This document shows, in pieces, positions 49,319 through 53,217 of a stretch of DNA of 64,000 bases. The DNA is from Escherichia coli (GTDB lineage: Bacteria > Pseudomonadota > Gammaproteobacteria > Enterobacterales > Enterobacteriaceae): the NCBI RefSeq assembly GCF_024700885.2, contig NZ_CP117016.1; one strand, written 5' to 3'. The position numbers and the translations under genes are program-made. How positions within the stretch are numbered: the first letter of the stretch is position 1; each line of letters starts with the position of its first letter. The notes below the pieces were generated by a model. The model was not told the origin of the DNA. It worked only from the letters and a program-made list of their open reading frames with translations, and made no database searches.

Positions 49319-49873
49319 TTATTTTAAGGAAAGCAACTGCTCTACGGTCATATTTTTAATTGCGCTCCGGTTTACAAGAGTCCAGCCTTGTTGCTCCAGA
49401 TAAAACAGGAAGGTATCCAGGGTGCAGACCATTGCGCCGTCAGGAACGGTTTCAGTGAATTTGATATTGCCGTGTTCGTCGAGACGGATAACCAGGGTGC
49501 GTCCGTCCCCGTGAATCATTTTGTCGGGAGACGGGGCGTTATTCTGGCGCAGTTCAGCTTCCATGCGGTCGAACTCAGCAATGTATGCCTCTTTAAATGC
49601 AGCGGCTTTTTTGCCAGTGAAGCCCATCACCAGGAAAACGAAGCCGTTTTTGGTGATTTGGTACATTGGGAGTTTGCGCCCGGTTGAGTCGGTGTATTCG
49701 CTCGACACAAAATTGTGCTCAGTGAATTTTGCTGAACAGTCCAGATTGCGAATTTTATCCAACACTCGTTCGTGGCGTTTGCCAAAGAACTCGGCGATCG
49801 CAACAGACGTAGTGACAGCGCGACCATTTTCGATGGTTACGTCAGGGTGAGAAAGGGTAAGGATAGTAGCCAT
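49319..49873 (-). CDS. Rha-family phage regulatory protein (184 aa)
   Basis: ATG at 49873 preceded by GGAGG; N-terminal motif VTTSVAIAEFFGKRHERVLDKIRNL and downstream PMYQITKNGFVFLVMGFTGKKAAAFKEAYIAEFDRME match the pRha pattern. The 100-codon upstream extension of the track ORF reads through a terminator hairpin and is rejected. Confidence 0.65.
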   Translation of the reverse strand: MATILTLSHPDVTIENGRAVTTSVAIAEFFGKRHERVLDKIRNLDCSAKFTEHNFVSSEYTDSTGRKLPMYQITKNGFVFLVMGFTGKKAAAFKEAYIAEFDRMEAELRQNNAPSPDKMIHGDGRTLVIRLDEHGNIKFTETVPDGAMVCTLDTFLFYLEQQGWTLVNRSAIKNMTVEQLLSLK

Positions 49874-50042
49874 GATGGCAGCCTCCGCGATGAATTTGAT
49901 TAACTCACCACCGAGGTTTTCCACGACCATAAGGGTGGTGAGACGTACAGGGGTGGAAATACCGGTCATCACGGAACCCGGCCAGCCTTGCGGCTGCCCT
50001 GCACGCCCCACCATAATGCGAATGTGGCTGTGCTTAACGCAT

Positions 50043-50064
50043 AAAAAAACCGCCTGAGCGCGGT
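50043..50064 (-). terminator. Rho-independent terminator downstream of the DicF-like sRNA
   Basis: On the minus strand, aaccgcgctcaggcggtt hairpin followed by TTTTTTT. Confidence 0.55.
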
Positions 50065-50352
50065 TATGCGCCGTGAATGATTTCGGGTTTCCACGCCCGG
50101 CACCCGTTTTATGAGGTGCAGGTGCACTATAATTCCACCCGTTCTGGTTTTCAATAGCTACATTCAACATTTTCTCTACCTTTCATCACCGAAGTGAACT
50201 TTGTTGATGCGGTGCCTGGTGCCTCCAGGTGATGTTAACCAGTTAACAATTAACGCCGGATACAGAGAATCCACCCATAACACTGTTTTTGGTTTTAACT
50301 GTTCCGCGTGCGCTGAGCCGCATTCACCGCATCACAAAATTCACTTTAAAAA

Positions 50353-50405
50353 GGGCGGCAGAGCAGTCACGGAGTAAAACTGATACCGCCAAAAGTCACC
50401 AGAAA
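50353..50405 (-). ncRNA. dicF: DicF-like sRNA (cell-division inhibitor sRNA of Qin-type prophages)
   Basis: Minus-strand 53 nt TTTCTGGTGACTTTTGGCGGTATCAGTTTTACTCCGTGACTGCTCTGCCGCCC differs at one position from the K-12 DicF sequence as I recall it; followed by a T-run. Confidence 0.65.
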
Positions 50406-50737
50406 ATTGATAACAGAGGGCGTTGCAGCGGAGTTGTCACTTAAGCGTATGGTCAACCTGACAACCCGGTGTCCTCAACGGGGGAAGGAATAACCCCGCC
50501 ATACTTACCGCCGCGCCATTTCGCGGAGTGCCACAACCGGAAGCGCACGGTCGAACTAAATTTAACGACACCGTACAGAGAGACCAATTTCGCCGTGCGC
50601 TTTCGCGTTATGCCCTGACTTTTCAGGGACATATCCTTTCAGTAAACTGTCAGTGCCGGATGTTCACCCGTGTCCGGCGCACGCACTCCACCTGACCCGT
50701 GGAGAACTCCTTAATTACCAACCCTCAGGAGGGTGAA

Positions 50738-51016
50738 ATGGATAAAAAGCAAATTGAGGCCCTGCAATCTATTATTGAAAAACAAGATGAAGCTATCAGG
50801 ATTCTTTCATATCGCACTGATATGATACTAAATATGCTTTCTGCATTAACGGCTGCGCTTGGTGGTACAAAAACAAACGTATACCGCGAAGTTGTTATTC
50901 AACAGATAGATAAATTTGAAAAAACCATACCAGGTATTAATGCTCATCTTGCAGAACAAGAGAAAGACCATGCTCTTATGGCAATTTCTTCAGTAGCTCT
51001 CCCGAAAGTTGAGTAG
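50738..51016 (+). CDS. Hypothetical AT-rich cargo protein (92 aa), convergent to the neighbouring minus-strand operon
   Basis: ATG at 50738 preceded by AGGAGG at 6-nt spacing (MDKKQIEALQSIIEKQDEAIRILSYRTDMILNMLSALTAALGG...); local GC is clearly below the flanks; 3' end overlaps the convergent 137-aa gene by 41 nt. Confidence 0.5.
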   Translation: MDKKQIEALQSIIEKQDEAIRILSYRTDMILNMLSALTAALGGTKTNVYREVVIQQIDKFEKTIPGINAHLAEQEKDHALMAISSVALPKVE

Positions 51017-51389
51017 TTTTAATTGTTGTTTTGAAATAATCACTGCTTTCACATTTGAGTGATTTCATGGCAATCCAAATGCGGGCCTCTGTGCCTGCAT
51101 TTGGTTCCAGTTGCTGTAGACGTTTTGCGTCTTCCAAAAGTAAGGCGATAATGTGTTTCAGCTTCTCATCATTTGCTTGATTCTTGTTTTCAGGCGAATT
51201 CTGTCCGCCGAATAGGCGCTTCTCTTCATACAGACCTATAAAGGCACGACGCACGTTACCGGATATAGTATCGATGGTTTCCTTTTCTACAGTACTCAGG
51301 TCAAGAGTCGCCAGTTGAGAGCGAACCACATTCGATGCCATTTCCTGGAATGGTACTGGTAAATCTTTAAATTCCATCGTCAACCTCAT
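50976..51389 (-). CDS. Hypothetical phage protein (137 aa; alternative start at 51377 after GAGG)
   Basis: ORF whose ATG overlaps the stop of the upstream gene (ATGA), suggesting translational coupling. Confidence 0.5.
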   Translation of the reverse strand: MRLTMEFKDLPVPFQEMASNVVRSQLATLDLSTVEKETIDTISGNVRRAFIGLYEEKRLFGGQNSPENKNQANDEKLKHIIALLLEDAKRLQQLEPNAGTEARIWIAMKSLKCESSDYFKTTIKTTQLSGELLKKLP

Positions 51390-51541
51390 CAGTCAGTGTT
51401 TCTGGTTAACCAGCGACGTGCGCCAGCTTCAGTTTTAAACGTTTTGCTTCTGGTATATGTCATCGCGGTAAACGTGCCGTCCTGGTTGGGAAACACGCCG
51501 CATACCAGAGATTCGTTGTTGCCAAGCTCGATAGTATCCAT
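51389..51541 (-). CDS. Small YdfA-like protein (50 aa)
   Basis: ATG at 51541 preceded by GAGG (MDTIELGNNESLVCGVFPNQDGTFTAMTYTRSKTFKTEAGARRWLTRNTD); it is the first gene after the repressor terminator, as ydfA follows dicA in Qin. The track ORF extends 27 codons upstream. Confidence 0.45.
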   Translation of the reverse strand: MDTIELGNNESLVCGVFPNQDGTFTAMTYTRSKTFKTEAGARRWLTRNTD

Positions 51542-51783
51542 GCTGACCTCATTTCCCCTTAACGCCGGGGTAGCGGAACAAAAACCTGCTGCATAGTTAT
51601 TAAAGTTGAACCCTGCCGTCATGTTCTTACGCCTCGGGCTGGCTACTTACCCCCTGACCACTGCTTGGTAACTCGAAGTATTGCCCGGCGTTCTGTGGGG
51701 CGGGGTGGGTTGGTATGTTGTTAAGGTAACAAGAGTTACCTTTCGAGTCAATACAATGTTGCAAAAGGTACATTTGAGGGCAT

Positions 51784-51813: not shown

Positions 51814-52488
51814 TCAGTCTAAGTATTGATGTATTTGTGAAACTTTACCTTTAATGGTGTAACCACCATTCAGTTCGATGGGTTTGTAAAGCGGATTCAG
51901 TGACAACAGATAGATGTTTGGTCCGTCAATCGCAACTTTTTTTAGTGTTACGTTTGGCGTTCCTTCCAATTGGATTAAGATTATTTTTCCCACCAGTTCT
52001 CTAATGTTACTTGAGCATGGTGTGATCAGCACGGTAGATCCGTCGGGGATGGTTGGGAGGCCGTTAGAGTTTGTCATCGCATCTCCCTCAACATGCAATA
52101 AAAAAGAGTTTTCAGCGGTTTTTGTCATGACATCAACCCAGTTCTTAATACCAGGAATCTTGGTTACTGGACAACTCATATCCCAATAACCAGCCTGTTC
52201 CCACGTTAAAACGGGCAACCGGGCGATGTTGTCACTAATGTAAGGGTACTGATTCAGACGCAGATCATCGGTTTTATCGTGACCGTCCTTTCCATAAAGA
52301 ATCCATTCAGGAGATTTGGAAAGCAATTTTGACAGTAGATACAAATTCTCACCGTCAGGTTTTGAAGAGCCATTTTCCCATTTTGTTACGGATACACGAG
52401 ATATGCCGATTGCTTTCGCAACCTGCTGTTGGGTTAATCCAACGTCTTTTCGACGATTCCGAATACGTTCGCTGATAGTGTTTTTCAT
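51814..52488 (-). CDS. cI: CI-like prophage repressor (HTH_XRE plus S24 LexA-like peptidase domain)
   Basis: N-terminal XRE HTH (GLTQQQVAKAIGISRVSVTKWENG) and C-terminal S24-like domain; divergent from the cro-like gene. Start chosen at ATG 52488 (MKNTISERIR..., 224 aa, no SD, compatible with a leaderless PRM-type transcript); alternative start at 52530. Confidence 0.8.
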   Translation of the reverse strand: MKNTISERIRNRRKDVGLTQQQVAKAIGISRVSVTKWENGSSKPDGENLYLLSKLLSKSPEWILYGKDGHDKTDDLRLNQYPYISDNIARLPVLTWEQAGYWDMSCPVTKIPGIKNWVDVMTKTAENSFLLHVEGDAMTNSNGLPTIPDGSTVLITPCSSNIRELVGKIILIQLEGTPNVTLKKVAIDGPNIYLLSLNPLYKPIELNGGYTIKGKVSQIHQYLD

Positions 52489-52550
52489 GTAACCAATGTT
52501 ACTACCAAGTGATGTTGCTATGGTTGACATTGTTATGTAACTATTGTTAC
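52489..52550. promoter_or_regulatory. Putative operator/divergent-promoter region between cI and cro
   Basis: Two 14-bp inverted repeats of the same form, GTAACCAATGTTAC (52489-52502) and GTAACTATTGTTAC (52537-52550), plus a TTGACA hexamer at 52524-52529. Confidence 0.4.
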
Positions 52551-52579: not shown

Positions 52580-52795
52580 ATGTTCAAAGATGATGTTCTG
52601 CGCTATTTCAAAAAAAAGCGACTAGTAGCTGAGGCTCTTGGAATTTCACATGTGGCTGTTGTGCGGTGGAAAGCAGTTATTCCCAAACTTCGCGCAATGG
52701 AACTGGATGAAATTACTAACGGTGAATTGAAATACAACCCAGAACTTTACAAGAAGCAGGATAGCACCTCGAACGAAGGAAAGAATGATTCATGA
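52580..52795 (+). CDS. cro: Cro-like / YdaS-family HTH regulator (71 aa)
   Basis: Small HTH ORF (RLVAEALGISHVAVVRWKAVIP) divergent from cI; AGGAG RBS; stop overlaps the next gene (ATGA). Confidence 0.7.
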   Translation: MFKDDVLRYFKKKRLVAEALGISHVAVVRWKAVIPKLRAMELDEITNGELKYNPELYKKQDSTSNEGKNDS

Positions 52796-53217
52796 AAATC
52801 AAGCATGAACACATCCGCATGGCGATGAATGCCTGGGCGCATCCGGACGGCGAAAAAGTACCGGCTGCGAAAATTACCAAAGCGTATTTCGAGCTGGGAA
52901 TGACGTTCCCGGAACTGTATGACGACAGCCATCCGGAAGCCCTGGCCCGTAATACCCAGAAAATTTTCCGTTGGCTGGATAAAGACACCCCTGATGCTGT
53001 TGAAAAAATGCAGGCTCTGTTACCGGCGATCGAAAAGGCGATGCCGCCTTTGCTGGTGGCCCGTATGCGCAGCCACAGTTCTGAATATTACCGTGAGATC
53101 GTCGAACGGAGGGATCGGCTGGTGAAGGATGTCGATGATTTTGTTGCGTCAGCGGTTGTTTTGTATGACCAGATGAATCGCGGCGGCCCGGCAGGGAATG
53201 CTGTGGTGATGCACTAA
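52792..53217 (+). CDS. YdaT-family protein (141 aa), CII-position gene
   Basis: Starts MKIKHEHI and ends ...VVMH, like Rac YdaT; translationally coupled to the cro-like gene. Confidence 0.65.
   Translation: MKIKHEHIRMAMNAWAHPDGEKVPAAKITKAYFELGMTFPELYDDSHPEALARNTQKIFRWLDKDTPDAVEKMQALLPAIEKAMPPLLVARMRSHSSEYYREIVERRDRLVKDVDDFVASAVVLYDQMNRGGPAGNAVVMH

Follow-up and report, generated by a model that had tools for sequence, protein, structure and literature searches.

The 64,000-nt stretch of Escherichia coli contig NZ_CP117016.1 analysed here (the window) includes the immunity region of a lambdoid prophage, where three small genes lie next to the cI-like repressor gene: a ydfA homologue and a gene for a 133-amino-acid (aa) two-domain protein on the minus strand and, converging on them, a 92-aa gene on the plus strand. 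All three open reading frames (ORFs) are genes in RefSeq, labelled hypothetical or DUF1391 proteins, and over the 941-bp stretch spanning them (50700–51640) the sequence matches the E. coli MLI114 chromosome at 100% identity. A first-pass annotation had read the three as one exclusion or defence module. We lean towards a different organization, in which two transcription units interlock: a repressor-controlled early-left operon and, embedded antisense within it, a plus-strand moron. The genes and the repressor signal are arranged as follows.

50738–51016, plus strand: the 92-aa gene (WP_000358771.1; phrog_18692), encoding a predicted three-helix protein, the cargo of the leader described below.
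50976–51377, minus strand: the gene for the 133-aa two-domain protein (WP_001339605.1; phrog_1363).
51389–51541, minus strand: the ydfA homologue (DUF1391, 50 aa; WP_021538048.1; phrog_751, E 1.9e-35), aligned to K-12 and phage Tritos.
51788–51808, minus strand: the intrinsic terminator behind the cI-like gene (AACCCGCA-loop-UGCGGGUU, then a U run; dG −15.8 kcal/mol, z score −3.97).
51814–52530 as annotated, minus strand: the cI-like LexA/S24 repressor gene.

Most of the earlier gene calls hold. For ydfA the 50-aa start is correct, with homology to K-12 ydfA starting only ~30 nt upstream and RefSeq giving the same start; a 77-aa extension of this ORF was discarded because its upstream part is not conserved as an ORF. 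Its neighbour had been described as a 137-aa ORF coupled to ydfA by an ATGA overlap at 51389, a description that needs amending. The longest ORF is indeed 137 aa and shares a single base with the ydfA stop codon (TGATG at 51389); the true start is almost certainly the ATG at 51377 (MEFKDLP), 11 nt past the ydfA stop with GAGG 6 nt upstream. PGAP starts the gene there, phrog_1363 begins at the same residue, and so does the gene in loci that have ydfC or ydfB before it. The plus-strand gene has its AGGAGG at 50727–50732, 5 nt ahead of the ATG, and overlaps the 133-aa gene tail to tail by 41 bp (50976–51016), as first described; a 105-aa extension of it failed on the same ground as that of ydfA. 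The foreign composition ascribed to it is also borne out, its GC content being 0.37 against 0.52 and 0.49–0.55 in the flanks and 0.49 in the window (cI, 0.42).

The 92-aa ORF is under strong purifying selection as a protein. Comparison with Salmonella homologues (72–74% identity) gives a ratio of nonsynonymous to synonymous substitution (dN/dS) of 0.19–0.25, falling to 0.037 in codons 25–57 (dS ~0.9), which shows an ORF beyond chance. Close homologues occur only in Enterobacteriaceae (22 clusters at 90% identity), and an exhaustive hidden Markov model search of 1.84 billion representatives with the family profile recovered 14 clusters, including distant 90–93-aa relatives, 0 of them annotated. 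Of 5426 complete E. coli genomes, 123 contain this exact cassette, and 4109 are similar to some part of the 941-bp query, for the most part beyond the cassette; strains that carry the cassette include MLI114, TW14425 and CE10. All relatives lie in temperate-phage or integrative contexts, each convergent with its neighbour: a cI/S24-type repressor gene faced directly (loci L019 and L020), the gene for a 133-aa helix-turn-helix repressor (L007, L008), the early operon of a P2-like element (L016) or an integrase (L017, L018). The 92-aa cargo thus accompanies four repressor types and is therefore not tied to one immunity. Downstream of the stop codon lies one further element.

51075–51104, plus strand: a 12-bp hairpin ~60 nt past the 92-aa stop and inside the 133-aa coding sequence (z −4.35), without a U tract.

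This hairpin is kept, with a G–U pair, in L004, L009 and L064, and is possibly the 3′ end or a stabilizer of the plus-strand transcript. The same bases encode the conserved PNAGTEARIW of the 133-aa protein and are kept in Salmonella and in other cassettes with its C-domain; protein constraint and opposite-strand RNA constraint seem to share them.

Upstream of the 92-aa gene we identified a candidate promoter and a structured leader that pairs the Shine–Dalgarno (SD) sequence.

50620–50648, plus strand: candidate sigma-70 promoter of the 92-aa gene (TTTTCA, 17 nt, TAAACT), with a predicted start at ~50654, the foot of helix H1.
50651–50740, plus strand: structured 5′ leader (~85 nt), three helices by RNAalifold, AUG at 50738.
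50653–50662 with 50671–50680, plus strand: H1, 10 bp.
50686–50691 with 50699–50704, plus strand: H2, 6–9 bp.
50707–50711 with 50727–50731, plus strand: H3, pairing the anti-SD CUCCU with the SD AGGAG.

All 92-aa homologues have the leader in front of them, even the distant ones from P2-like elements, beside integrases and in other cI/S24 settings. Both fold and covariation support a structure in the plus-strand RNA. Measured against shuffled sequences, folding is in excess on the plus strand (z −3.10) but not on the minus strand (z −0.68), and H1 carries conserved U–G and G–U pairs, which are mismatches on the opposite strand. Across 22 distinct leaders 86% of cells pair, compared with 39–45% when the partners are slid. 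H2 is built from three differing sequences (CUCCAC/GUGGAG, CCCAAC/GUUGGG and GACCACACG/CGUGUUGGUC), and the last pair of H3 is U–A in 7 sequences and A–U in 12 (CUCCU/AGGAG versus CUCCA/UGGAG). A covariance model made from the leaders finds a single significant copy in the window (102.9 bits, 50651–50740, plus strand); Rfam contains no match to the leader (E ≤ 1 across 5 kb and E ≤ 10 across 181 nt). The promoter position is also recurrent, a −10-like TAnnnT hexamer preceding H1 by 6–9 nt in most upstream contexts, which are otherwise unrelated (dicF-type, L004, L009, L016, L017, L019, L047; TAAACT here, and elsewhere TAAAAT, TGnTATTAT, TGcTATACA, TAAGCT and TAGTAT). RNase III is known to process dicBF mRNA, with a mapped cut ~137 nt upstream of DicF (PMC10448788); a link between this processing and the leader was rejected, the cut falling near 50540, ~110 nt outside. 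A literature search for an antisense start site near ydfC yielded nothing useful.

The same leader serves other genes. Over all sampled sequence, a redundant and non-random sample, we counted 136 leader instances, and a scan of viral contigs for H1 gave at least 120 stretches. Where the leader is followed by a gene, at least ten mutually unrelated ORFs (57–105 aa) begin right after the same SD–ATG (L010–L014, L021–L140). Named by their first residues, these families are MLKSTL (77 aa), MPNKPI (69), MSDKLI (61), MTQEEK (69), MSEQEL (64), M[TA]SKNV (73), MQVDII (57), MAKFTV (94, weakly YmfI-like) and MPNKPC (61), together with MSTEND/MGFDVN (91), which are distant relatives of the 92-aa family. 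Behind each cargo stands a plus-strand hairpin of its own, in some cases with a U tract (L061, L079). The cargo proteins belong to PHROGs of unknown function or to none, and the ten other than the 92-aa protein gave no match in PADLOC and NCBIfam except the weak YmfI-like one. Slots with other cargo types are present in the viable phages Evi and mEp460_ev081. From these comparisons the leader looks like the mark of a swap-in recombination slot for accessory small genes: the leader with its SD–ATG would form one conserved flank and ydfA or the N-domain of the 133-aa protein the other, with unrelated genes exchanged among prophages in between.

About 44% of the sampled leader copies are empty, including that of K-12 Qin, where the leader runs into the antisense of the ydfC 3′ end with neither SD nor ORF. 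The K-12 copy (L003 3529–3635, minus strand; NC_000913.3 ~1649028–1649134), antisense between ydfC and dicF, scores 49 bits with the covariance model and still has H1, H2 and promoter-like hexamers. An antisense RNA missing from the annotation is one possible identity for this copy, a mere relic the other.

On the minus strand, ydfA and the 133-aa gene lie behind signals of a different kind.

51723–51751, minus strand: early-left (pL/dicBp-like) promoter, −35 TTGACT (51751–51746), 17-nt spacer, −10 TACCTT (51728–51723).
51726–51739: operator palindrome GTAACAAGAGTTAC, overlapping the −10 and spacer of that promoter.
50353–50404, minus strand: the small RNA DicF (RF00039, 75.8 bits against a gathering score of 48, E 5e-16).
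52580–52795, plus strand: cro, from the annotation.

The promoter hexamers were picked by eye, and a consensus scan did not report them. As for the operator, exact GTAAC-N4-GTTAC occurs only three times in the 64-kb window, at 51726 and, in the right operator region (OR) between cI and cro, at 52489 and 52537, and allowing one mismatch gives 6 matches against 1.18 expected. Sequence specific to the immunity type extends up to the early-left promoter; downstream of it the sequence is common with phage Tritos, which has a different repressor. From there on, the order ydfA, spacer, DicF is that of K-12 Qin and of Tritos, and 50195–50725 is ~94% identical to the ydfC–dicF–dicB spacer of both, in agreement with the homology to Qin ydfABC-dicF-dicB proposed at first pass. 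By this collinearity, ydfA and the 133-aa gene are the first genes of a predicted early-left operon homologous to Qin dicBF. The operon begins with the operator-bearing promoter and continues through ydfA, the 133-aa gene, a long spacer, DicF, an IsrK/C4/Rha cassette, YdaE and an exonuclease. The two minus-strand ORFs are real, as had been claimed, but the operon does not end with them: it passes 50976, runs antisense to the 92-aa gene and reaches DicF and beyond. Compared with Qin, the operon has no ydfB or ydfC, and dicB is replaced, with a pseudogene fragment annotated there and the Rha gene beginning at the position of the K-12 dicB start.

The Qin operon is a single polycistronic transcript through dicF, driven from dicBp upstream of ydfA and repressed by DicA; in the laboratory it stays silent, and derepression comes from an antirepressor or arises spontaneously in part of the population (PMC5069750; PMC10448788). 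By analogy with the repression demonstrated at Qin dicBp, the lysogen here should keep ydfA and the 133-aa gene silent until induction turns them on, because a terminator separates cI from the ydfA operon and the ydfA promoter bears an operator. That terminator had been seen at first pass, when the position was compared to that of rexAB; adjacency to the repressor stands, but the terminator and the operator-bearing ydfA promoter make the site functionally unlike rexAB.

Several observations bear on the rest of this region. The ~175-nt 5′ untranslated region of ydfA (51542–51716, minus strand) shows no excess folding (z 0.06) and no Rfam match, and the z score speaks against a Put-like or other structure there; this region is kept between prophages with different repressors (the window and Tritos) and is absent from K-12 Qin. 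There is no evident means of antitermination in these N-less phages. In the place of dicB lies a P1/P7 immI-like cassette (49319–50170, minus strand) with a C4 antisense RNA (RF01695, 81.9 bits) and IsrK (RF01394, 67.7 bits); its sub-elements lie at 49931–50018, 50043–50119 and 50080–50132, accompanied by a sub-threshold c4-a1b1 target match. The annotated 283-aa ORF of the Rha-family antirepressor-like gene holds these two RNA genes in its 5′ part, and the real Rha start is therefore probably near 49872 (MATILTL...). The PGAP DicB pseudogene fragment (50200–50283, minus strand) aligns upstream of the K-12 dicB start codon, and 50200–50341 (minus strand) resembles STnc100 at 32.3 bits, below the gathering score of 47. 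On the far side of the repressor, the first OR operator (52489–52502) falls within the cI coding sequence as annotated (RefSeq start 52530). An alternative ATG at 52488 (MKNTISERIRN...) adjoins that operator; its use would mean a lambda-like leaderless mRNA and a repressor of ~224 aa. The gene in the cII position (52792–53217, plus strand) is annotated 'toxin YdaT family protein', as in Rac and many related loci.

The interlocked arrangement that we favour is based on the reality of the genes, the shared operator, the homology to dicBF, the conservation and covariation of the leader and the diversity of its cargo; from these we infer activity of the plus promoter, expression in the lysogen and silencing by antisense. 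The early-left operon would be shut by the cI-like repressor in the lysogen and would fire upon induction. The plus unit would consist of a weak constitutive promoter, the ~85-nt leader, the 92-aa helical protein and the 3′ hairpin. The two 5′ hairpins of the leader may stabilize the mRNA, and H3, by pairing the SD with the upstream CUCC, may throttle or gate translation. In the lysogen the plus unit alone would be transcribed, leaving the 92-aa plus-strand gene as the only candidate for lysogen expression. Upon induction the strong early-left promoter would read antisense through the plus unit and silence it by polymerase collision and double-stranded RNA. The earlier suggestion of antisense regulation from the convergent overlap fits this scheme, convergent transcription making interference likely.

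Several points weigh against this arrangement. The candidate plus-strand promoter is weak, matching 8 of 12 consensus positions, and was missed by the consensus scan; the 3′ hairpin, lacking a U tract, offers no clear terminator for the plus transcript. The leader sequences represent ~3 lineages, hence the compensatory changes are not independent, and leader pairs with a change on both sides are only moderately above shuffles (14/500). When single sequences are folded to minimum energy, the SD is at times paired with another nearby stretch in place of H3. The dicBF mRNA of dicF-type loci also includes the leader sequence, which could there be conserved partly for the sake of the minus strand. 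The distribution of the 92-aa family is narrow as well, tblastn finding it in 0 of 50,697 deposited phage records.

A broader proposal takes leader and promoter as an unrecognized plug-in platform lying antisense within the early-left operon of dicBF-type lambdoid prophages, with a related form in P2-like and other temperate elements: lysogens would express interchangeable 57–105-aa exclusion or anti-phage factors, or partners of the C-domains, and antisense transcription would switch these off upon induction. We regard this wider generalization as unlikely, if the best placed of the remaining readings.

The mention of C-domain partners brings in the 133-aa protein, whose family is mosaic. A conserved N-domain (MEFKDLP...VR.AF.GLY, aa 1–57) occurs free-standing as a 52–56-aa protein or joined to C-terminal regions of up to ~160 residues that vary by cargo type. 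Here it is joined to a helical C-domain (aa 65–108, LKHIIALLLEDAKRLQQLEPNAGTEARIWIA), under purifying selection with dN/dS 0.06–0.22; the same domain is a free-standing 71–75-aa gene in Salmonella, paired with a 93-aa homologue of the plus-strand protein through the same 41-bp overlap. AlphaFold2 predicts two helical hairpins (predicted local distance difference test scores (pLDDT) of 84–92 and 75–81) and a disordered tail at residues 110–133 (pLDDT <50); the codons for the last ~13 residues of this tail lie opposite the 3′ end of the 92-aa gene. In L016 an unrelated 214-aa gene converging on a homologue ends with a similar ...EELLIRCS tail, and the overlap therefore looks like a by-product of whichever gene reads into the cassette.

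These features invite an explanation in which the convergent pair forms a cognate two-protein system of colicin/immunity type: one partner an induced effector and the other its constitutive match, with either neutralizing the other and conferring self-immunity on induction. Nearly every cargo-bearing slot faces a member with the MEFKDLP N-domain whose C-terminal region changes with cargo type, and the Salmonella pairing and the purifying selection on both partners speak for it too. Linkage alone would suffice to explain these associations, however, everything between the two conserved recombination flanks moving together. Nor is the pairing of cargo and C-domain strict (L023, L037, L064): L023 has the same 137-aa protein beside an MQVDII cargo, and the same C-domain start is found with three cargo types. 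These counter-examples rule out strict co-variation as proof of interaction. Homologues of the 92-aa protein also occur without such a partner in L007/L008, L019 and L020, and the last ~13 residues of the converging protein are imposed by the cargo antisense and predicted to be disordered. When the 133-aa and 92-aa proteins were joined by a linker, AlphaFold2 folded the domains and gave a predicted template modelling score of 0.39, no sign of a confident complex; a Foldseek search of the joined model against viral structures retrieved only a 52-aa N-domain homologue in phage phi191. We judge a cognate pair improbable.

Somewhat less probable again is that the plus transcript acts mainly as a constitutive antisense RNA, which would bind leaky transcripts of the early-left operon and so keep toxic products encoded downstream (DicF, DicB or the Rha antirepressor) off in the lysogen, its ORFs being passengers. 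The empty copies of the leader, with hexamers, H1 and H2 retained but no SD or ORF, would suit such a function; so would the full complementarity of the plus transcript to the operon mRNA and the part of RNase III in processing dicBF mRNA (PMC10448788). Conservation in empty loci can, however, be explained by the minus-strand mRNA, and the RNase III cut near 50540 falls outside the predicted plus transcript. The 92-aa protein is under strong purifying selection (dS saturated), an SD-sequestering helix is a feature of translation, and distant homologues retain leader and ORF outside dicF contexts, all of which speaks against a mainly RNA-level function.

Searches for function returned little. 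The three proteins gave no significant match in NCBIfam and PADLOC (in PADLOC-DB v2, two chance-level matches only: HerA, E 0.022, and AbiEi, E 0.04), nor the 92-aa and 137-aa proteins in Pfam; the three and the ten other cargo proteins matched only PHROGs of unknown function and sub-threshold noise. Homology to RexA, RexB or SieB was found neither by Pfam (92-aa and 137-aa proteins) nor by PADLOC or NCBIfam (all three), and these profile searches agree with the earlier remark that no motif could be recognized. A type II toxin–antitoxin pair was rejected, the genes being convergent and the sole match, RelB-like, scoring 15.9 bits against a cut-off of 50. Sequence searches of the PDB found nothing. 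AlphaFold2 models the 92-aa protein as three helices with mediocre confidence, and Foldseek against the PDB returned only generic three-helix matches for it, the best being ribosomal protein chains (chain t, which we take to be bS20; E 0.15). A literature search for DUF1391 produced nothing useful.

Our best guess by analogy is that the 92-aa protein is a lysogen-expressed factor that modifies the host or excludes phages. An anti-phage effect specifically we hold to be doubtful, though less so than any of the rival readings, an estimate made because of the precedent of immunity-region genes and not from this sequence; a defence role for the locus is possible and finds no support in the present analysis.

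Least probable is the first-pass proposal itself, that ydfA, the 133-aa gene and the 92-aa gene form one exclusion or defence module acting in the lysogen from the RexAB position: the slot does adjoin the repressor, the place of rexAB, sieB, nun and bstA-type genes elsewhere (sieB lying near the same place in relatives), DicB from the same type of operon reportedly protects against phages when expressed (bioRxiv 10.1101/708461), and none of the three proteins has a known function, but the genes assort independently (ydfA, the near-universal first gene of such operons with any cargo, lacks the other two in most relatives, and the 92-aa gene lacks ydfA or the 133-aa gene in L007/L008 and L016–L020), the terminator and operator-bearing promoter ahead of ydfA and the 133-aa gene should keep both silent in a lysogen, and PADLOC, Pfam, NCBIfam and PDB sequence and fold searches were all negative.

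Comparison with known systems places the favoured arrangement between several of them. As in the Qin dicBF operon of K-12 (ydfA-ydfB-ydfC-dicF-dicB-ydfD), a position downstream of a cI/DicA-type repressor is followed by ydfA as first gene, a ~340-nt spacer and DicF, with a promoter upstream of ydfA under repressor control, predicted here from the operator palindrome. Unlike Qin, the prophage has the 133-aa MEFKDLP gene and the convergent 92-aa gene in place of ydfB/ydfC and IsrK/C4/Rha in place of dicB, and the S24 peptidase domain of its repressor makes the prophage probably inducible by the SOS response. Lambda rexAB, HK022 nun and sieB likewise adjoin the repressor and are accessory and variable between related phages. 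PRM drives rexAB and nun together with cI, and sieB is oriented like pL; here, by contrast, a terminator follows cI, the promoter bears an operator and the candidate lysogenic gene is convergent, with no sequence or profile similarity to these genes. Morons (lambda bor and lom, HK97 gp15) offer a parallel in their small size, own putative promoter, 3′ hairpin, atypical GC content and presence or absence among collinear prophages. The gene described here differs in lying antisense inside an early operon, not between late genes, and in its conserved structured leader common to unrelated cargo, which is no described moron feature.

The immunity genes of pore-forming colicins are read from a constitutive promoter of their own on the opposite strand and are flanked by the SOS-induced colicin gene and the lysis gene. 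The likeness is of a small convergent gene, presumed constitutive in our case, within a stress- or SOS-induced operon, beside a neighbour with a conserved N-terminal and a variable C-terminal part; it is an analogy of arrangement only, without homology, and cargo types here do not keep strictly to one C-domain. Among SD-sequestering leaders, RNA thermometers and lambda cIII mRNA with its alternative structures resemble the leader in having a helix that pairs the SD with an upstream CUCC and is kept by compensatory changes. The likeness is in structure alone, the leader having two extra 5′ hairpins and no Rfam family.

The three genes were known already as database hypotheticals, and a variable accessory region beside a prophage repressor is a familiar kind of feature. 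A plus-strand, SD-sequestering leader common to unrelated small cargo genes and its antisense placement inside a repressor-controlled early operon both appear undescribed, as far as Rfam and the literature searched extend. Immunity regions of temperate phages house lysogen genes that alter the phage sensitivity and physiology of their own host. For this locus our reading is a correction, in that ydfA and its neighbour would be repressor-controlled early genes, not lysogenic ones. Should the plus-strand gene prove silent or without effect, the convergent genes would be merely another hypothetical prophage ORF pair; if the arrangement holds true, the conserved promoter and leader would provide a sequence handle, in the form of the covariance model, with which to harvest many small accessory proteins without assigned function from enterobacterial prophages.

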